A DNA stretch of 64,000 nucleotides from the NCBI GenBank assembly GCA_963768425.1, contig CAVYHV010000014.1, positions 160,001 to 224,000 of the forward strand. Reading direction: 5' to 3'. Source of the stretch: Candidatus Bathyarchaeota archaeon. GTDB taxonomy: Archaea; Thermoproteota; Bathyarchaeia; Bathyarchaeales; Bathycorpusculaceae. The notes under the pieces were generated by a model that did not search any database, was not told where the DNA came from, and saw only the letters and a list, made by a program, of their open reading frames with translations. Both the position numbers and the translations under genes were made by a program. Positions 41,218 to 49,495 of this stretch are shown one piece after another. How positions within the stretch are numbered: the first letter of the stretch is position 1; every line of letters begins with the position of its first letter.

Positions 41218-41619
41218 TTAGGAGAATATGGAGAAGGATGATTCGCCTTCGGGCTCTTTTTGTTTGTCGTTGAATTCCTTGATTCTTTTGTTAAGCTCTT
41301 CCACTTCTTTGGTGTTGCCTAAAGCTTTTTGGCTGTCCCGTGCTTGTTCAAGCGCGCTGACTCCGTATCGGTCAAATCCCTTGCCGAAAGCTACATCCGC
41401 AGATTTCATGAAGAGCTCCGCAGCTTTCTGATAATCTTTTAGTTGGAAGCTACATTCACCAGCTTTATAGTTCATTTCGGCTGAGCCAAAGTAGTTTTGT
41501 CCTTTGTAGTACAGGTCCGCCACTTTCATGAAAAGGTCGCGGGCTTCGGCGTAGTTGCCGTTTTCCATCAACGCGTTTGCGTCTTTGTGAAGTTTAATTG
41601 GATCGTCTCTTACGCTCAT
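41218..41619 (-). CDS. TPR/alpha-SNAP-like helical repeat protein
   Basis: YAEARDLFMKVADLY, YKAGEC, YQKAAELFMKSAD. Confidence 0.75.
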   Translation of the reverse strand: MSVRDDPIKLHKDANALMENGNYAEARDLFMKVADLYYKGQNYFGSAEMNYKAGECSFQLKDYQKAAELFMKSADVAFGKGFDRYGVSALEQARDSQKALGNTKEVEELNKRIKEFNDKQKEPEGESSFSIFS

Positions 41620-41873: not shown

Positions 41874-42695
41874 ATGGAAACTAATTGTGCGGGTGACATA
41901 ATGCATTCTCTCAAAATTGTTGTTGCGACTTTTTTGATATTAACGATTCTTTTTGGGGTTGGAACCAGTTTTGCGCTCACTTACGGGCCCACTAATGGTT
42001 ATGTACAATACAATATTACTGCAAGCGGCAAAGCTGACTATTTCCAGTCTGTTAGCGGCATCATAAACGAGTCTGTTCAACCAACTGGTCAAGCGGGATT
42101 TGTAAACCTTATACTAGACTTATCTTCGACGAAAGCAAATTTTACTTACTCCAAAGATGTTAACGCTACTTCTCTGCTAGAAATCTTCCCATACGTCCCT
42201 GCAATAACAAACCAGTCATTATCTTATCAAACTCAAGGAATCTCCATCAGCGCAAACCTAATTAACGCAGGCCAGACGACAGTCAGCTTTAACGGCACAA
42301 CTTACCAAGCAACCAAATATTTAATCTCCTTCTCTGCGGCAAACTCCTCCAATGCCTTGTCGTTTTCGGGAAATGGCAGTATAATCAGTTTGCCATCGGG
42401 TTTAATTGACACAGTTCAACTCTCGCTGAACCAAACTGCTTCAATCAATGCGACCCTTTTATCAACAAATCTTTCACTCAACGCGCCATCAGGCAACATC
42501 AACCCTGTAGGAGCCTCAGTGCTCGGCTTAGCCTTAGCAGCGGCAGTTGCAATTGCAGCCCCAACAATATACACAAGAGAGAAGAAGAAAAAATACGAAG
42601 AGCAACCTCAGGAAGATGAAAATAACACTAGCCAAGAAAGCGATGTAAAACAAGAGAACGAGGACGAGAACAAGCCTTCTTACTGGGTTGACTAA
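41874..42695 (+). CDS. Exported, C-terminally anchored probable glycoprotein next to ABC transporter
   Basis: Signal peptide, many N-x-S/T sequons, TM, acidic tail. Confidence 0.7.
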   Translation: METNCAGDIMHSLKIVVATFLILTILFGVGTSFALTYGPTNGYVQYNITASGKADYFQSVSGIINESVQPTGQAGFVNLILDLSSTKANFTYSKDVNATSLLEIFPYVPAITNQSLSYQTQGISISANLINAGQTTVSFNGTTYQATKYLISFSAANSSNALSFSGNGSIISLPSGLIDTVQLSLNQTASINATLLSTNLSLNAPSGNINPVGASVLGLALAAAVAIAAPTIYTREKKKKYEEQPQEDENNTSQESDVKQENEDENKPSYWVD

Positions 42696-42745
42696 CATTG
42701 AGTAATGCAAAAATCGGTTGCTTAGCAGCAAACATAAAAGCTTAG

Positions 42746-43738
42746 GTGGAAGCTGTCACGGCTAATTCTTCGGCGGTAATTGAGCTCAATAAAGCGGTGA
42801 AAGATTATGGCAGCAACAGGCGGATTGGCCCGGCAAATCTCACGATCAGCAAAGGGGAAATTGTGGGGTTTCTGGGTCCCAACGGATCGGGTAAAACAAC
42901 TTGCATCAGGTTAATCTTAGGTTTAATCAGGCCGACCTCAGGCACAGTGAAAGTCAACGGATTTGACCCAATCACCAATCACGTTGAAGCATTAAGACAT
43001 GTAGCGTATTCTCCTGAGTTGCCTAACATACAGACTTTTCTAAGCCCAAGAGAACTTCTTAATCTAATTTCCCATGAACTCTATTTCCCCGATAATGCCA
43101 ACAGAAGCAGCGAGATAGACCAAGTGATTGAACTGGTCGGTTTACATGACTACGCCGACACGAAGGTAGGAAAACTTAGCAAAGGGATGATTCAAAGACT
43201 AAGCGTTGCCCAAGCGTTGGTTGGGTCGCCAGAAACTTTAATTCTGGATGAACCGATGATCGGTCTAGATCCTGCTGGAGTTGTTCATTTTAGAGATGTT
43301 TTCAGGGACTTCGCCGCCCATGGGAAAGGAACAGTCTTTATGTCCTCTCATATTATGAGCGAAGTGGAATCGCTTTGTACCTCAGTAGCGATGATCCACC
43401 ATGGAAAAATACTGTTCAAAGGGTCAGTAGATGAAGTAGTGGGAAAAGTGTTAGATTACTCTCTCGTTGAGCTGGAAACTAGCCCTTTAACGCCTGAAAC
43501 GATCCAACAGTTAAAAGAGATTTCTGGAATAACCCAAATTAACGTGGCAGAAAGCGGAAAAGGGGATGCGGTCGCTATCGAAATTACAGTGTGTGAACGT
43601 GACCATGACATTAGACCAGAAATCGCTGATATCGTAGTCAAGTCAGGCGCCAAACTCTACACTATCAAGCATGGTGAGAACATGCTGGAAAAGGCTTACA
43701 TTGAAGCGCTTAAAGAGACAAAAGGTGGCAAACCTTGA
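42746..43738 (+). CDS. ABC-2 type transporter ATP-binding protein
   Basis: GPNGSGKTT, LSKGM, ILDEP, SSH. Confidence 0.95.
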   Translation: MEAVTANSSAVIELNKAVKDYGSNRRIGPANLTISKGEIVGFLGPNGSGKTTCIRLILGLIRPTSGTVKVNGFDPITNHVEALRHVAYSPELPNIQTFLSPRELLNLISHELYFPDNANRSSEIDQVIELVGLHDYADTKVGKLSKGMIQRLSVAQALVGSPETLILDEPMIGLDPAGVVHFRDVFRDFAAHGKGTVFMSSHIMSEVESLCTSVAMIHHGKILFKGSVDEVVGKVLDYSLVELETSPLTPETIQQLKEISGITQINVAESGKGDAVAIEITVCERDHDIRPEIADIVVKSGAKLYTIKHGENMLEKAYIEALKETKGGKP

Positions 43739-44583
43739 AACGCGCTGAAGTCATTTACACTTTTGCTCGGTACGAAATCAAGCGTGCCATCGCACGAAAA
43801 AAAGTTTTGGCTCTAGTCGCTTTCACGATACTTTTGAGTGTACTACCATATTATGCGTTGTCACAAGCAGGAACTACCCTGATTCCCTCAAACGTCTACC
43901 CATATCTTTGGGTTTTTGCAATACTATTGGTTGGCCCTCTTTTCTTAAACTTCACAGCAATCCTGATAGCTGCAGGGTCAATGTCAGAAGAATACGAGCA
44001 AGGCACTGCCGAACTTCTTTTATCAAAGCCAGTAAGACGAAGCGACTACATCGCGGGTAAATTCTTCGGGGGGTATGTTCTGTTTCTTTTTATTCTTACT
44101 TTAACCCTTGTCCTATCCATTTCATCAGCATTCACTTTTTTTGGCGTCCAAGACAACCTTTACCTAATTCCTGGATTATTCATAGCTCAAGCTTTTAGTT
44201 CACTGTTATTCTTTTCTTTAGCGTTCATGCTTGGAGAACTAATCAGGCGCTCTTCTCTTGCTTACATTTTCTCGTCAGCGGTTTTCTTTTCAAGTTACAT
44301 CATAAGCATTTTTTTGAGTGCAATCTTTAGGGCTACGGGCAAAGTGGTCTACAAGACTGTTCAGATGTATCTTCCAACTTCGGCAGCAAGTTCGCTTCCT
44401 ATTCAATATGCTTTACCGAGGCTTCCGCCGACTGTATCAACAGCCCTTACTTTTATCAGCACTTCAACTCTCCGGCCCACAATTAGCTTCTCAATTGAAC
44501 TCCTGCTAGTCTACATAATTGTAGCAGTAACAATTGCCGCAGCCTACTTTTTGCATGCCGACATTTCAAGAAAACTAAGTTAA
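43735..44583 (+). CDS. ABC-2 type transporter permease
   Basis: EEYEQGTAELLLSKPVRRSDYIAGKF; about six TMs. Confidence 0.92.
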   Translation: MKRAEVIYTFARYEIKRAIARKKVLALVAFTILLSVLPYYALSQAGTTLIPSNVYPYLWVFAILLVGPLFLNFTAILIAAGSMSEEYEQGTAELLLSKPVRRSDYIAGKFFGGYVLFLFILTLTLVLSISSAFTFFGVQDNLYLIPGLFIAQAFSSLLFFSLAFMLGELIRRSSLAYIFSSAVFFSSYIISIFLSAIFRATGKVVYKTVQMYLPTSAASSLPIQYALPRLPPTVSTALTFISTSTLRPTISFSIELLLVYIIVAVTIAAAYFLHADISRKLS

Positions 44584-44702
44584 TCATGCTTGGACGGGCG
44601 CATTATTGTACGTTAACAGTAGCAGGCTAGATTTCCCATGTGTTACTTTTGACTCTTACCTGATGGTATAACATAAAAGCGTGTTTAGGCAACATACCCA
44701 AG

Positions 44703-46100
44703 ATGACCTTAACTCTAAAATGCATTCACTGCTCCAGTGAATTTCAAGTTTATCCTTTGAGAAGTAACTGTGAAAAATGCGGAGGTACATTGGAATTTGC
44801 AGCAGAATTACCTGAAGCAAGGAACCTTCGGTTTTCTGGGCAACCTGGATTCTGGCGATACAGACAGGTGCTTCCACCTGTTAAGCATGAAGTAAGCTTA
44901 GGAGAGGGTGGGACTCCCCTGCATAAGGCTGAGAGACTGGCTAAAACAGTCGGGTTAAAAGAACTCTATTTAAAAGATGAAACACGTAATCCCACCAACA
45001 GTTATAGGGATCGGGCTGCCGCTTTCATGACGTCAAATGCGATTGACCAGGGCTTTGAGACACTTGTATGTGCCAGTAACGGGAATATGGGAGCTTCTTT
45101 AGCCGCTTACACTGCAAAAGCAAACTTGATCTGCCACGTGTTGGTCCCAAAAATCGTCGATGTAGGCAAGTTGGCGCAGATGATTGCTTACGACGCCGTC
45201 ATTGAGGAGTCAGGTAACATTGTAGATGATTCCATTCGCAAAGCCGCTGATCTAGCCAAGGAAACTGGTTGGTACCAAGCCACCGCCGAACTTAACCCGT
45301 TAGTTGTTGAAGCCCAAAAAACCATTTCATACGAAATAAACGAGCAGTCCGCGACTCCAAATTGGGTGATTGTGCCAATGGGAAGCGGCGGAACAATCTA
45401 TTCGCTTTGGAAAGGCTTCAAAGAACTCAAAGAGTTAGGGCTCGCTGACTCTCTGCCTCGAATGGTCGGGGTTCAGACGGAAGGCTGCGCTCCAATAGTC
45501 AATCAACTGAAAGATAACGCGCCATCGAAATCCTTCAGCCCTTCAACCCGTGCATTAGCTATTCTCGTAGGTGAACCGTTGCAAAGCGACTTAGCTGTGA
45601 AAGCAATTCACGAGTCAAACGGGTTGGCTTTAACTGTTTCAGACAGCGAAATTTTGGCTTCCGAGCTATTGGTAGCAAAGCTGGAAGGGGTCTTCGCTGA
45701 GCCAGCAAGTTCAGCCACCGTGGCAGCGCTGCAGAAACTGAAAGAAAAACAGATTTCAACACACGACAGCGTTGTTTGCCTCATCACTGGGAGCGGCTTA
45801 AAATCGACGGATGTTTTGCAGGCTCTGAACAAAAAGCAAAAAACAGCTGGTTTGGGGCTGGCGGTTAGTACTAAGCAGAAGATTCTCAAGATTCTCAGTG
45901 AAAAGGATTCATATGGTTATGATTTGTGGAAGCAGCTGGGGCAGATCATGACACGCGCAGCCGTGTATCAGCACCTTAATGAGTTGGCTGATAGGGGGTT
46001 GATAGTGAGCTATGAGCAAGATGGGAAGAGATTTTTCCGCATTGCTGAGCGAGGTAGGAAGGTTTTGGCTGCGTTTGATGAGATTCAGTTGCTTATGTGA
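44703..46100 (+). CDS. Threonine synthase-like fold-type II PLP domain (catalytic Lys to Arg) fused to C-terminal PadR-like wHTH
   Basis: SLGEGGTPL, NPTNSYRDR, ASNGNMGAS, PMGSGG, AEPASS, ITGSGLK; C-terminus SYGYDLWKQL..RAAVYQHLNELADRGLI..ERGRKVL. Confidence 0.88.
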   Translation: MTLTLKCIHCSSEFQVYPLRSNCEKCGGTLEFAAELPEARNLRFSGQPGFWRYRQVLPPVKHEVSLGEGGTPLHKAERLAKTVGLKELYLKDETRNPTNSYRDRAAAFMTSNAIDQGFETLVCASNGNMGASLAAYTAKANLICHVLVPKIVDVGKLAQMIAYDAVIEESGNIVDDSIRKAADLAKETGWYQATAELNPLVVEAQKTISYEINEQSATPNWVIVPMGSGGTIYSLWKGFKELKELGLADSLPRMVGVQTEGCAPIVNQLKDNAPSKSFSPSTRALAILVGEPLQSDLAVKAIHESNGLALTVSDSEILASELLVAKLEGVFAEPASSATVAALQKLKEKQISTHDSVVCLITGSGLKSTDVLQALNKKQKTAGLGLAVSTKQKILKILSEKDSYGYDLWKQLGQIMTRAAVYQHLNELADRGLIVSYEQDGKRFFRIAERGRKVLAAFDEIQLLM

Positions 46101-46726
46101 GTTTTGGGAAAATACTTATTAGGCATGATAGCTGCAACTATAATATAGTTACAACTATACTAAAGGCGACAAACATGGGATTCCGAACTGAACAAGGAAG
46201 AATAACACTCACAGTTGCACAGGCGGGAATCATGGCGGCGTTGGTCGCAGTCGCAACATTTGCAGTGCAGGTTCCGATCCCAGCCACCAAAGGGTACCTA
46301 AACTTCGGCGACATCATGATCTTCGCCAGCGCCCTAATTTTCGGTCCAATTGTCGGCGGTTTCGCAGGCGGCGTTGGATCAGCATTATCTGACGTAGCAG
46401 GCGGGTATGCCTCAACGTATGCCCCATTCACGCTTATTATAAAGGGTGCAGAAGGAATAATTGCAGGATTAATAGCTAAAAGGGGAAGCAAGAAAAGAAA
46501 CGTTTTGGCGGTCGCTGTTGCAGGGGTAGAAATGGTGTCAGGATACTTCTTGGCGGAGTTCTTCGGCCTTTCGTTAGGTTGGGCAGCAGCGACTGAGGTT
46601 CCGTTCAACATCTTGCAGATAGCTGCAGGGGGTGCTATAGGCATCCCAATATCCATAGTTATTCTGAAAAGACTCCCTGAAACTTGGATAAGACAAAGCC
46701 AGACAAGAGAGGTTGGGACAGCTTAA
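46097..46726 (+). CDS. ECF transporter S component, HmpT/PdxU2-like (likely start 46175)
   Basis: IPATKGYLNFGDIMIF...GGVGSALSDVAGGY..YAPFTLIIKGAEG. Confidence 0.85.
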   Translation: MSFGKILIRHDSCNYNIVTTILKATNMGFRTEQGRITLTVAQAGIMAALVAVATFAVQVPIPATKGYLNFGDIMIFASALIFGPIVGGFAGGVGSALSDVAGGYASTYAPFTLIIKGAEGIIAGLIAKRGSKKRNVLAVAVAGVEMVSGYFLAEFFGLSLGWAAATEVPFNILQIAAGGAIGIPISIVILKRLPETWIRQSQTREVGTA

Positions 46727-46752
46727 AAGCTAGATTTCACAGAGAATAAGCT

Positions 46753-47761
46753 ATGAAGCTGCCGCCTGGAAAAATTCCTATTGAAATCCTGAAAGAAACA
46801 GTTTTCAAGAACTTGGGCGCACAACGAGGCGAAGTCGTTTTGGGTCCCGCTGCAGGATTAGACGGCGCAGTTTTGGATGTTGGAAACAAGAACGCCATAG
46901 TCTCGATGGATCCGATAACGGGTGCAGTTGAGCGTATAGGTTGGGAGGCAGTTAACGTTAACGCCAACGACGTCGCAACTTTCGGAGTTGAACCCTCCTT
47001 TCTGTTTTCTTGCCTGCTTTTGCCAGAGAACGCTCAAAGCGAAATCGTACAAACCCATAGCTACCCAAATGAACGCTGCCGCAAAAGAGCTTAACATCGC
47101 AATCGTCGGCGGGCACTGCGAGTCAACACCAGGGTTGTCAAACCCGATCGTAGTGGGCTGCATCATGGGATTAACTGAAAAAGGCAAATACGTCACCGCT
47201 GCAGGCGCAAAGACCGGCGACAAACTGATTTTGACAAAGAGCGCTGGCATTGAAGGCACAGCCATCTTAGCCTCTGATAGGGAAAAGCAGCTGAAAAAAG
47301 TCTTCAACCTCGCGTTCCTTGACAGCGCCAAAAATTTTTACAGCCAAATCAGCGTGGTAAAAGACGCCTTGACTGCTTACAGGTCAGGGGGAGTCCACGC
47401 GATGCACGACCCAACCGAAGGAGGAATCCTAAACGGGATCCACGAGTTGGCGGATGCGGCAGGATTGGGCGTGAGGGTTTTTGAAGAGAAAATTGCTGTT
47501 GAGCCTGAAACCGCTAAAATCTGCCGTTTCTACGAAATTGACCCGCTACAGCTTATCAGTTCAGGCGCATTGCTCATTGCAGCTGAGCCGGAAGCAGCAC
47601 CTAAAATAATTGAAAGCCTCAGCGAGGAACGAATCTACGCCGACGTCATAGGAGAATTTAACCCGAACCCGAACAACCGCATACTAATGCATAAGGACAA
47701 TTCGGCGGAGATGCTGCCCCGACCCGTCTCAGACCACCTGTGGGTCGCACTTTCTCACTGA
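46753..47761 (+). CDS. AIR synthase-related (PurM/HypE/ThiL fold) protein (frameshift near 47050)
   Basis: MKLPPGKIP, DPITG, NANDVA, VGGHCE, AMHDPTEGG, LISSGALL. Confidence 0.88.
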
Positions 47762-47775
47762 CACAATTTGAAATG

Positions 47776-48642
47776 TCAGGATTCAATCTTTGTTTTTAAT
47801 GGTTTTTCTTCCGAAAAAGGAGCCATCTTTCCGGAGTTAGGTTGGAAGACTACAGTGAGGCCAATTGTGCTTTGATAGATTTTGGGTTTCGGTTTTGAGT
47901 TATTTCTAAACCAGTTCAGGGGAACTTGGAAGATCCAGTTGAGCAGAAAGGCTGGGTAGAAGAGCATGTATCCGTACAGGTGCGAGTAGACTAAGCCGCA
48001 TTTGAATTCGACTATGGCTTGTGAGAACCCAGTTTTCACATTCCAGCTGGTCGGCGGCTTGTAGTGGAGGCAGTAGGCTTCAGATGCGACACAAACTTTG
48101 TATCCTTGATCTTTGATGTGCCTGATGACATGAGCGTCTTCGTAGGTATGCAGGTGCTCAGGGATCTTTATGCCCGCCACTGCCTTGGTTAGAATTAGTG
48201 TGTCATGGGTTCCACCACGCAACTTGAAGCATTCCCGGGCAAGTATGCCCTGCAAAAGAAGAACCCGTTTGTCTGTTACGTTTGGGATAACGTCGACGTT
48301 TAAACCCCAAACCGCTGCAACCCCATTTTTCAAATCTGTTTGCGCTTTTTTATACCAGTCCTTGCAAAGGACGACGTCGCTGTCGACAAACAAAAACCGT
48401 TCCGTGGTAACGTGCCGTATGCCTTCGGTTCGCGCTTTAGCCCTTGAACCGTCAACTTGAAAAAGTGCAACGTTTCCGTGCGCCTTGTTGAAGCCGTCGA
48501 GAATTTTCAGGGTTCCGTCTGTTGAGAAGCCGTCAATTACAATTAGATTTTTGACGGGCACGTTTTTATAAATTGACGTTAAACAATTGCTGAGTTTGTG
48601 CGCACTGTTCTTAGTCAGCAATACAACGTCAACTTGATCCAT
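47776..48642 (-). CDS. GT2 glycosyltransferase
   Basis: VIDGFSTDGT, FVDSDV, YEDA; paralog of the adjacent gene. Confidence 0.9.
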   Translation of the reverse strand: MDQVDVVLLTKNSAHKLSNCLTSIYKNVPVKNLIVIDGFSTDGTLKILDGFNKAHGNVALFQVDGSRAKARTEGIRHVTTERFLFVDSDVVLCKDWYKKAQTDLKNGVAAVWGLNVDVIPNVTDKRVLLLQGILARECFKLRGGTHDTLILTKAVAGIKIPEHLHTYEDAHVIRHIKDQGYKVCVASEAYCLHYKPPTSWNVKTGFSQAIVEFKCGLVYSHLYGYMLFYPAFLLNWIFQVPLNWFRNNSKPKPKIYQSTIGLTVVFQPNSGKMAPFSEEKPLKTKIES

Positions 48643-48703
48643 CGATGTGCCTCAACGTTTGGTTTGTATGCATTAACGCTTGTAGCGCTTAAAAAGATAA
48701 AGT

Positions 48704-49495
48704 TTAACGCTTCCCCTCTCGCCTAGCAACCTCATAAAGCGCGTAGCCTGAGTAAAACGCGTAGGCAGCTAGCAACCTGCCAATCAACCATACATCCCCA
48801 AGCGTAAGAGCCTCAGCAAACAAACCTATGCTTCCTCTAAGTGTCCAAACGTTCGGCGGACGGTAATGAACGCAGAATGGGATGTAGCATGGAATTACGC
48901 GGTAGCCTTTTTGTTCAATCCAATCTTTTATGTATGCGTCTTCATAAACATGGAGTTTTTTTGGAATTTGGATATCTTTAACGAGTTCTGTTTTAATGAG
49001 GGTGTCGTGGGTTCCGCCGCGGACCTCAAAAATTTTCCGTGTAATCCGCAAAAAAAACGCCATAGTCACTGGGCTTTCAACGGTTGACCAAATCTCTGTT
49101 CCCCAAACCGCACCAACATCCTCCTTGATGTACTGTTGGGCTTTTTTGTACCAATCATTACAGAGGATGACATCACTGTCCACAAACAGAAACCATTCTG
49201 TGTTTACGTCAGCTATGCCTTTTTGGCGTGCAGTGGCACGGTTGCCTTTGTCCATTATGATTTTTACGTTGTGGTATTTTTCGTCAAACCAATTAAGAAC
49301 ATCCAAGGTTTTGTCCGTTGAGTATCCGTCGACTGCTATGAGTCGGGCAACTGGCACGTTGTTATACACGGATTCTAGGCATTCTTTGAGTTTTCTGTCG
49401 CTGTTCTTAGTCAACAGCACAACGTCAACCGAGTCCACGCAACCATCTCCTTTCTTGACCGCTAAGTTAACGGTCAACTCATAGAGGCTATGCAA
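48704..49495 (-). CDS. GT2 glycosyltransferase (tandem paralog)
   Basis: AVDGYSTDKT, FVDSDV, RGGTHDTLI, YEDA. Confidence 0.9.
   Translation of the reverse strand: MHSLYELTVNLAVKKGDGCVDSVDVVLLTKNSDRKLKECLESVYNNVPVARLIAVDGYSTDKTLDVLNWFDEKYHNVKIIMDKGNRATARQKGIADVNTEWFLFVDSDVILCNDWYKKAQQYIKEDVGAVWGTEIWSTVESPVTMAFFLRITRKIFEVRGGTHDTLIKTELVKDIQIPKKLHVYEDAYIKDWIEQKGYRVIPCYIPFCVHYRPPNVWTLRGSIGLFAEALTLGDVWLIGRLLAAYAFYSGYALYEVARREGKR

Follow-up and report, generated by a model that had tools for sequence, protein, structure and literature searches.

Regulators of the MocR subfamily, among them PdxR and GabR of Bacteria, join a domain with the fold of a pyridoxal 5'-phosphate (PLP) enzyme to a winged helix and act as sensors that control the PLP synthesis genes (pdxST) and related genes (PMC5320631; PdxR in PMC9997740). 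In Archaea, RbkR couples an enzyme-like ligand domain to a helix-turn-helix (HTH) and controls the biosynthesis and transport genes of one vitamin. A survey of PLP metabolism states that most prokaryotes have no identified transporter for vitamin B6 and that further, alternative kinases for B6 are still to be found, and it leaves the regulators to an earlier study titled for Bacteria (PMC9997740). Here we analyse a stretch of 64,000 nucleotides (the window) of contig C14 of a Candidatus Bathyarchaeota archaeon, whose assembly comprises 2.96 Mb in 33 contigs and is 91% complete. The gene at 44703-46100 encodes a threonine synthase (ThrC)-like protein fused to a winged helix-turn-helix (wHTH), and is followed by genes for an S component of the energy-coupling factor (ECF) type and for a member of the PurM superfamily. 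We propose that this gene probably encodes a B6-responsive local repressor derived from ThrC, and that the operon behind it would encode a B6 importer and an ATP-using PurM-superfamily enzyme.

The predicted regulator combines the same two kinds of domain as the MocR proteins, and shares with PdxR a genomic linkage to pdxS-pdxT, at the orthologous loci L004, L010 and L015 and at the loci L101, L102, L212 and L189 of a sister clade. Its sensor domain has the ThrC-like fold type II and not the aminotransferase fold (fold type I), its wHTH is PadR-like and C-terminal whereas that of MocR is GntR-like and N-terminal, and its family is archaeal and has lost the Schiff-base lysine, which MocR proteins keep. 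It differs from RbkR in vitamin, enzyme fold and HTH family, and RbkR is still an active kinase whereas the window protein has lost its catalytic residue. ThiR is likewise an archaeal vitamin regulator derived from an enzyme, with an enzyme-like domain and an HTH. With threonine synthase (TIGR00260; 2D1F, 2ZSJ, 1UIM) the window protein shares the fold, an N-terminal zinc ribbon and almost all conserved columns; unlike threonine synthase it is without the Schiff-base lysine, carries an extra linker and the wHTH, and lies in a different gene context. The best explanation of the regulator is an archaeal functional analogue of PdxR that is not a member of the PdxR family. The RbkR paper mentions neither pyridoxal, PLP nor threonine synthase. 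Full-text searches, with subscription journals and supplements outside their scope, yielded no description of ThrC-wHTH regulators or of the PurM-like proteins of this locus, and B6-sensing control by a ThrC-derived switch seems not yet to have been described for archaea.

Results

Loss of the Schiff-base lysine

At the cofactor-binding motif the protein reads NPTNSYRDR, with arginine in place of the Schiff-base lysine, and the codons bear out the AGG at 45006-45008 to which an earlier note on this DNA had drawn attention. The phosphate loop GSGG of that note is present within the glycine loop PMGSGGT, and the wHTH that it placed in frame at the C-terminus matches PF03551 (PadR) at residues 394-456 with 37.9 bits against a cut-off of 27. 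The solved structures nearest to the ThrC-like domain are the threonine synthases 2D1F and 2ZSJ (E about 1e-61). The AlphaFold2 (AF2) model, made from 70 input sequences with a mean predicted local distance difference test score (pLDDT) of 90.5, consists of a ThrC-like body and a disordered linker, followed at residues 385-464 by three helices, a beta hairpin and a C-terminal helix, i.e. a winged helix.

Arginine occupies the lysine site in all of the 120 best regulator homologs (73-100% identity), every one of which carries both Pfam domains, and arginine and the wHTH are found together in 80/80 orthologous loci from species-representative genomes, whose regulators are 59-97% identical to that of the window. 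The substitution and the fusion, whose conservation the earlier note had left to be checked, are therefore conserved, and a miscall of AAG as AGG is ruled out by the arginine in every ortholog. Contigs of four public runs, which come from related populations about 96% identical to the window, show no difference at 45006-45008 among the differences listed.

For a survey of the wider family, the regulator protein was scored against 1.84 billion representatives (50% identity) and the best 150 were examined, the wHTH being called by a profile of the C-terminal domain and the lysine site by alignment of the catalytic domain. Seventy-four of these representatives are fused to the wHTH; two of them have lysine, two are fragments without the site, and 70 have another residue (L 18, I 15, R 14, V 6, T 5, M 4, F 3, and single S, N, Y, A and H). 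Among the 76 unfused representatives lysine is found in 71, arginine in four and valine in one, and the four with arginine are three fragments of 131-247 amino acids (aa) and one protein aligned at residues 4-332 only. Lysine loss tracks wHTH fusion across the family, which by its record names includes Bathyarchaeia, Lokiarchaeota, Thermococcus chitonophagus, Baldrarchaeia, Aigarchaeota and Njordarchaeales.

The loss is also selective. When columns conserved to at least 80% in 70 lysine-bearing unfused representatives were compared with 72 fused ones, the lysine column fell from 100% in the canonical proteins to 3%, while the fused group kept N128 (90%), G227 (94%), G229 (100%), E211 (100%), T362 (99%) and G365 (100%), conserved columns some of which, by comparison with ThrC structures, would contact PLP. 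The next largest falls were at S125 (97 to 46%, mostly to threonine), D314 (84 to 47%) and A268 (84 to 49%), followed by P252 (96 to 62%) and A113 (94 to 64%), and the cysteine columns of the zinc ribbon are kept in 85-88% of the fused and 86-93% of the canonical representatives. Selective loss of the residue that forms the covalent bond fits a domain that may still bind the cofactor reversibly. In a FastTree phylogeny of the catalytic domain (145 rows; five left out for being shorter than 340 aa or having no lysine-site column), a bipartition with a support of 0.849 sets apart all 73 fused tips and, with them, two rows in which no wHTH was detected. Within this group, 50 rows with hydrophobic or polar replacements form one subclade (0.931) and 24 rows, most of them with arginine, another (0.98).

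Public annotations imply a still-active threonine synthase on which the wHTH would be a passenger or moonlighting add-on, and the names given to members of the family are all 'threonine synthase' or 'pyridoxal-phosphate dependent enzyme'. The protein does score 207.8 bits on TIGR00260, above the cut-off of 167.1, and 409.4 bits on NF004170 (PRK05638, 'threonine synthase'), a model that spans the wHTH and covers residues 5-458. The latter score is below the cut-off of 421, which is reached in 0/14 control genomes. The Schiff-base lysine is absent from 80/80 orthologs, and the sister clade has L, I or V in its place; no genes of the threonine pathway are among the neighbours, and a canonical thrC with the motif NPTGSFKDR lies elsewhere in the same genome, on contig C17, followed by a homoserine dehydrogenase-like gene. 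We consider an active enzyme extremely improbable. The suggestion of the earlier note that the domain is a pseudoenzyme agrees with the family-wide loss of the lysine, the retention of nearly all other conserved ThrC columns and the separate canonical thrC for which it had said to look.

The canonical thrC is itself interrupted in this assembly: its zinc-ribbon part lies in another frame, with a shift at a G run (locus L001, about 1500-1535). At three metagenome loci (L172 1751-3329, L178 3500-5079 and L187 1011-2591), lysine-bearing ThrC genes of about 385 aa stand beside a small gene of its own, divergently oriented, which scores about 50 bits on the fused-wHTH profile; this arrangement may represent an unfused state resembling the ancestor of the fusion.

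A conserved palindrome and the genes behind it

In nearly all orthologous loci, the spacer after the regulator stop holds a palindrome with the consensus TAGTATAG-N6-CTATACTA, and in many cases a box of the TTTATTAG type lies ahead of it. A matrix was built from 73 palindrome sites (maximum 38.3 bits), with a threshold of 20 bits for the loci and 12 bits for the genome. At least one site lies within 200 nt past the regulator stop in 76/80 ortholog loci, and in the whole own genome (2.96 Mb, both strands) there is a single site, at C14:206141-206162, i.e. 46141-46162 of the window. Many ortholog loci have an extra copy of the right arm 17 nt downstream, a two-site layout with the same 17-nt offset as in the window, and the palindrome is better conserved than the surrounding proteins. 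The frame of the S component opens at GTG 46097, while ATG 46175 gives a protein of 183 aa as in relatives, and the latter is most likely the start as judged from this comparison; it leaves a spacer of 74 nt after the regulator stop, which holds the promoter-like box and the palindrome. The palindrome lies 13 nt before this ATG, between the TATA-like box and the gene start, where an archaeal repressor would be expected to block initiation. The matrix finds no copy upstream of the regulator itself in the own genome. An operator 5' of the regulator was considered and rejected: the upstream regions show TATA-like blocks only, and the matrix gives no second genomic site.

An S component follows within the next two same-strand open reading frames (ORFs) in 75/80 ortholog loci, and a PurM-like gene within the next three in 64/80, or anywhere in the locus in 70/80, several loci ending early. 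In three of the 80 (L004, L010 and L015) the S component is replaced by pdxS-pdxT, scoring 341 bits (PF01680) and 184 bits (PF01174), respectively, again with the PurM-like gene behind; in L010 it begins 20 nt past pdxT. The regulators of these three loci are 81-88% identical to that of the window, and the palindrome is identical. In close relatives, one regulator and one candidate operator front either predicted B6 uptake or predicted B6 synthesis. It is mainly because the same palindrome fronts the S component or pdxS-pdxT that we prefer B6 over the thiamine precursor hydroxymethylpyrimidine (HMP) as the subject of the module. The earlier note had left B6 and HMP side by side; the exchange for pdxS-pdxT at three orthologous loci, and the sister clade beside pdxST at four, favour the former. 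Its proposal of a transcription factor gains from a palindrome of 22 bp that accompanies the gene from locus to locus and occurs only once in the genome, to which the protein is predicted to bind.

Eight relatives have the genes of the module without the regulator, in the order TPR-like gene, S component, PurM-like gene and two GT2 genes. The palindrome is absent from seven of these eight loci at a threshold of 8 bits. The eighth (L217 5554-5575, genome G111) retains before its S component a decayed copy of 17.9 of 38.3 bits, no regulator being found in G111, and this copy looks like a relic left after regulator loss.

The sister clade

The sister clade, defined as wHTH-fused ThrC proteins in which the lysine is replaced by L, I, V or M, was followed in a class sample of 151 Bathyarchaeia genomes, each at least 80% complete, and in a metagenome scan. 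The pair pdxST stands beside the sister-clade regulator at four loci (L101, L102, L212 and L189). Fourteen sister-clade loci were first found in the class genomes; two are divergent from pdxS-pdxT and five lie beside S components of PF07155, one of these five also having a PurM-like gene. Nineteen more pdxS loci of the class genomes yielded one further divergent pair of regulator and pdxS, making three in total, and another class genome has the PurM-like gene, pdxS and pdxT in this order on one strand. In eight of eight pdxS loci from one Bathyarchaeia family (L196-L203), an ORF of about 94-112 aa lies directly 5' of pdxS-pdxT on the same strand.

The metagenome scan, with the clade alignment as query, returned 80 loci with 78 ThrC-like ORFs. 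Thirty-nine of these ORFs are without the lysine; 36 of them contain a wHTH in the same ORF and 26 have an S component within two ORFs, while a PurM-like gene is found beside six and pdxS and pdxT beside one. Among the 38 ORFs with lysine, a wHTH, S component or pdxS/pdxT nearby was found in none (0/38), and one ORF had no site. The divergent spacers of the sister clade share a dyad of their own, ATATAAG-N6-CCTATATA, with the same 8-N6-8 geometry, both where they face an S component and where they face pdxS. The strict pattern of this dyad lies upstream of 22/50 sister genes, 0/38 lysine-type and 0/4 arginine-type genes. With zero mismatches in five genomes it occurs at the regulator locus only in four and not at all in one; with one mismatch there are 10 hits elsewhere in those genomes against seven for a reversed-pattern control. 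In the window, two matches with two mismatches (15775 and 41139) stand against a chance expectation of 1.12 and are not meaningful. The 126 other neighbours of sister-clade genes contain no recurrent family, the commonest matching 5/126.

These targets bear on a different role for the domain, in which PLP would be a fixed cofactor and the sensor would detect, by way of an external aldimine, an amino acid or a phosphorylated one (such as threonine or O-phosphohomoserine), as GabR does with gamma-aminobutyric acid (GABA), and the regulon would follow amino-acid status. The retention of nearly all conserved active-site columns, beyond the expected cofactor contacts, speaks for such a sensor, as do two fused family members that retain the lysine, and MocR-type regulators are described as binding PLP and controlling genes for GABA, taurine and PLP (PMC5320631). 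What recurs among the targets, however, is an S component of the B6 type or pdxS-pdxT, and not amino-acid genes; no palindrome was found at the canonical thrC and homoserine dehydrogenase elsewhere in the genome; and a protein without the lysine has no route for transimination. We regard an amino-acid sensor as unlikely, if the least unlikely of the alternatives, and retain the B6-responsive repressor as the preferred reading.

The S component and the PurM-like gene

The earlier note was right to see an HmpT/PdxU2-like S component downstream on the same strand: the protein scores 127.2 bits on PF07155, and its only solved-chain match above noise (E up to 1) is 4HZU chain S (E 6e-16). This entry is the structure of HmpT, from which pyridoxamine was extracted and identified by mass spectrometry, according to a paper that also records that HmpT/PdxU2 was first named for HMP (PMC4860826). 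PdxU and PdxU2/HmpT are both placed under PF07155 in the PLP survey (PMC9997740). Three pocket residues of HmpT (Y120, N140 and Q143) are identical in the window protein, whereas four differ (E41 to D, W76 to Y, H84 to K and Q87 to E), and this replaced signature is shared by the 75 S components that accompany arginine-type regulators and the 31 that accompany the sister clade (106). The window S component further differs from PdxU2/HmpT in that no ECF A or T genes are adjacent and its partner is a PurM-like gene, not pdxK.

For the gene at 46753-47761 the earlier note was right in part. A gene of the PurM/ThiL fold does follow on the same strand, with AIRS and AIRS_C domains; it is not the single open frame that was described, being split by an extra C into frames 46753-47094 and 46988-47761. 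Contigs of 4/4 public runs have one base fewer at 47054, although, coming from related populations, they do not settle the reality of the extra C here, and 119 of the 120 best PurM-like homologs have 335-350 aa, the other being a 295-aa fragment. Since a homopolymer run breaks the frame of the canonical thrC in this assembly too, an assembly error appears likelier than a real break. The intact 335-aa ortholog P0319 scores below all NCBIfam cut-offs (HypE 112.5/251.6, ThiL 89.6/184, SelD 67/125, PurM 44/236). It shares with ThiL, HypE and SelD the AIRS and AIRS_C domains and the ATP-using fold, its best solved relatives are HypE proteins, and for the PurM-like protein the ESM Atlas gives 'AIR synthase family protein' only. 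HypE ends in a conserved cysteine, which was not seen in P0319. The own genome separately has HypE (370 bits), ThiL (246 bits), PurM, a PurL-sized protein and a SelD fragment. An assignment as ThiL, HypE, SelD or PurM was rejected, the scores lying below all cut-offs and the own HypE, PurM, ThiL and SelD-like fragment lying elsewhere. The company that the PurM-like protein keeps, with the regulator, the S component and pdxST, would place it in B6 metabolism. That it is a B6 vitamer kinase is the simplest guess, and one that we would sooner expect to fail than to hold.

Table 1. Features of the predicted B6 module in the window.
Feature	Position	Strand	Basis
TATA-like block GGTATAACATAAAAG, 24-38 nt 5' of regulator ATG	44665..44679	+	kept upstream of close orthologs; putative promoter
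Predicted regulator gene, 465 aa: zinc ribbon, lysine-less ThrC-fold domain, linker, PadR-like wHTH	44703..46100	+	PF00291, PF03551, TIGR00260, AF2 model
Four-Cys zinc ribbon (C7, C10, C23, C26)	44721..44780	+	Cys columns
Fold-type II PLP-enzyme (ThrC-like) domain, residues 64-363	44892..45791	+	PF00291 PALP 248 bits
AGG = Arg102 at Schiff-base lysine position	45006..45008	+	codons aat ccc acc aac agt tat agg gat cgg = NPTNSYRDR
Flexible linker, residues 369-387	45807..45863	+	pLDDT <50 in AF2 model
PadR-like wHTH, residues 388-465	45864..46097	+	PF03551; AF2 model
TATA-like box ACTTATTAGG, putative internal promoter of the S component operon	46114..46123	+	TTTATTAG or TTTAATAG-type box abuts palindrome in relatives
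Degenerate first palindrome copy CATGATAG-CTGCAA-CTATAATA	46124..46145	.	17 nt upstream of strong site; <12 bits
Candidate operator TAATATAG-TTACAA-CTATACTA, 8-N6-8 inverted repeat, 22 bp	46141..46162	.	32.9 bits
ECF-type S component, PdxU2/HmpT-like, 183 aa from ATG 46175	46175..46726	+	PF07155 127.2 bits
PurM-superfamily (AIR synthase family) gene, +1 frameshift	46753..47761	+	AIRS PF00586, AIRS_C PF02769
CCC run with one extra C (relatives CC)	47054..47056	+	alignment with L003, L006, L004; public-run contigs

Around the module, two paralogous GT2 glycosyltransferase genes (47776-49495, minus strand) and a 133-aa gene (41218-41619, minus strand) are flanking genes in most relatives as well. 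Between the 133-aa gene and the regulator, the window and L004 have an insertion of a 273-aa gene and a pair of ABC-2 transporter genes (41874-44583).

Vitamin B6 and thiamine genes in the class

In the own genome no match for PdxS or PdxJ was found, and PdxT and PF08543 gave sub-threshold matches only, which in an assembly that is 91% complete is not proof of absence. Across the class sample, PdxS is above the cut-off in 22/151 genomes, regulator orthologs (matches at E 1e-129 or better) are present in 52/151 and the PurM-like family in 139/151. With PdxS above the cut-off in so few genomes, most Bathyarchaeia may rely on vitamin B6 from outside or on a pathway yet to be recognised. Some genomes (G135, G075 and G053) have the regulator together with pdxS and many have neither, and no clear anti-correlation of the module with pdxS emerges; the PurM-like gene is missing from 5/22 genomes with pdxS and 7/129 without, the genomes being related to one another. 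PF08543 was discarded as a marker of PdxK: its strong matches lie in frames mostly of about 440-530 aa, which look like ThiD-ThiN fusions, and tell little about B6.

The thiamine genes of the genome provide the setting for an HMP salvage module, in which the sensor would respond to the PLP-like HMP phosphate (HMP-P) or pyrophosphate (HMP-PP), the S component would carry HMP, and the PurM-like protein would be an HMP(-P) kinase replacing ThiD. In the own genome ThiE and ThiL are present, yet ThiC was not found and no ThiD-type kinase (PF08543) exceeds the cut-off. The curated families closest to the PurM-like protein include that of the kinase ThiL (89.6 bits), and the first naming of HmpT/PdxU2 for HMP (PMC4860826) points the same way. 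A second module of the same contig, at C14:103568-106486 (L244 4569-7486), appears better suited to this role. It is a tight row of an S component (PF07155, 35.5 bits), a methyltransferase, a PurM-like paralog (32% identical to the PurM-like protein of the window) and, directly after it, ThiE. Three other genomes have the same four genes in order, and four more have the pair of S component and paralog. The second S component differs at the HmpT pocket positions, although its alignment is less sure at such distance. The combination of an S component and a PurM-like enzyme appears to occur twice, once with predicted ties to thiamine and once to B6, the second module being the better HMP candidate and its ThiE-linked paralog a candidate replacement for the HMP(-P) kinase. 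Against HMP as the subject of the window module there is, besides this separate operon with its different pocket, the palindrome before pdxS-pdxT at three orthologous loci and the pdxST partner at four sister-clade loci, and no thiamine gene occurs among the 25 most frequent families of the 126 other neighbours. HMP salvage by the window module is, in our estimate, quite unlikely, and a B6 module remains the preferred reading.

Discussion

The results allow us to propose a series of linked steps for the locus. The ThrC-fold domain would keep its cofactor pocket, and because arginine replaces the lysine no Schiff base would form; the regulator would then bind reversibly, most likely to PLP or to the phosphate of a close B6 vitamer. 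The PadR-like wHTH, in a dimer, would bind the 8-N6-8 palindrome at 46141-46162, and when B6 is plentiful the regulator would probably block transcription of the downstream operon. The PdxU2/HmpT-like S component would import a B6 vitamer, on which the PurM-superfamily enzyme would act using ATP; in the simplest case this enzyme would be a kinase by which the vitamer is trapped or recycled.

Several observations weigh against this mechanism. The ligand PLP, DNA binding in a dimer, repression as the sign of regulation, the substrate of the transporter and the reaction of the PurM-like protein are all inferred from sequence. Two lysine-bearing fused clusters, P0121 (a Bathyarchaeota record) and P0125 (a Lokiarchaeota record), are nested in the arginine subclade, P0121 being the representative nearest to the query; because of these two clusters the loss of the lysine is not absolute, arginine and lysine being one transition apart. 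The regulator is dispensable, since the eight relatives without it, six of them in the same genus, keep the pair of S component and PurM-like gene. The strict dyad is found in only 22/50 sister-clade loci, and no B6-related neighbour is present in 12/39 metagenome loci and 7/14 of the first class loci of the sister clade. The matrix and patterns were derived from the same loci as were counted, so that the positive counts are partly circular; the genome-wide uniqueness of the palindrome, the lysine-type controls and the relatives without the regulator are not. No ECF energising genes lie beside the S component, and a CbiQ/EcfT-family gene is found elsewhere in the genome. The PurM-like gene is broken in this assembly, and the protein occurs in 17/22 class genomes with PdxS and in pdxST operons, where a salvage kinase is unneeded; nor is any member of the PurM superfamily known to phosphorylate an alcohol.

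A broader combination of claims, which we find doubtful taken together, is that the lysine-less ThrC-wHTH family comprises B6 regulators across several archaeal phyla (by record names Bathyarchaeia, Asgard lineages, Aigarchaeota and Thermococcus) and that the PurM-like proteins paired with S components are new vitamin-precursor kinases. If this were true, the PurM-like type of the window would be the missing archaeal pyridoxal kinase and the ThiE-linked paralog would replace ThiD on HMP or HMP-P, a pair that would mirror, in a different fold, the PdxK/ThiD paralogy of the ribokinase family.

The locus offers three candidates: an archaeal B6-responsive transcription factor, a B6 transporter and an ATP-using enzyme tied to B6 genes. 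The predicted regulator would be a natural example of a pseudoenzyme turned sensor by the loss of one catalytic residue with the remaining pocket kept, and the name 'threonine synthase' on these proteins would mislead metabolic reconstructions. Because only 22/151 sampled genomes show pdxS, the exchange of B6 may shape the ecology of the Bathyarchaeia, an abundant group of sediments and peat.

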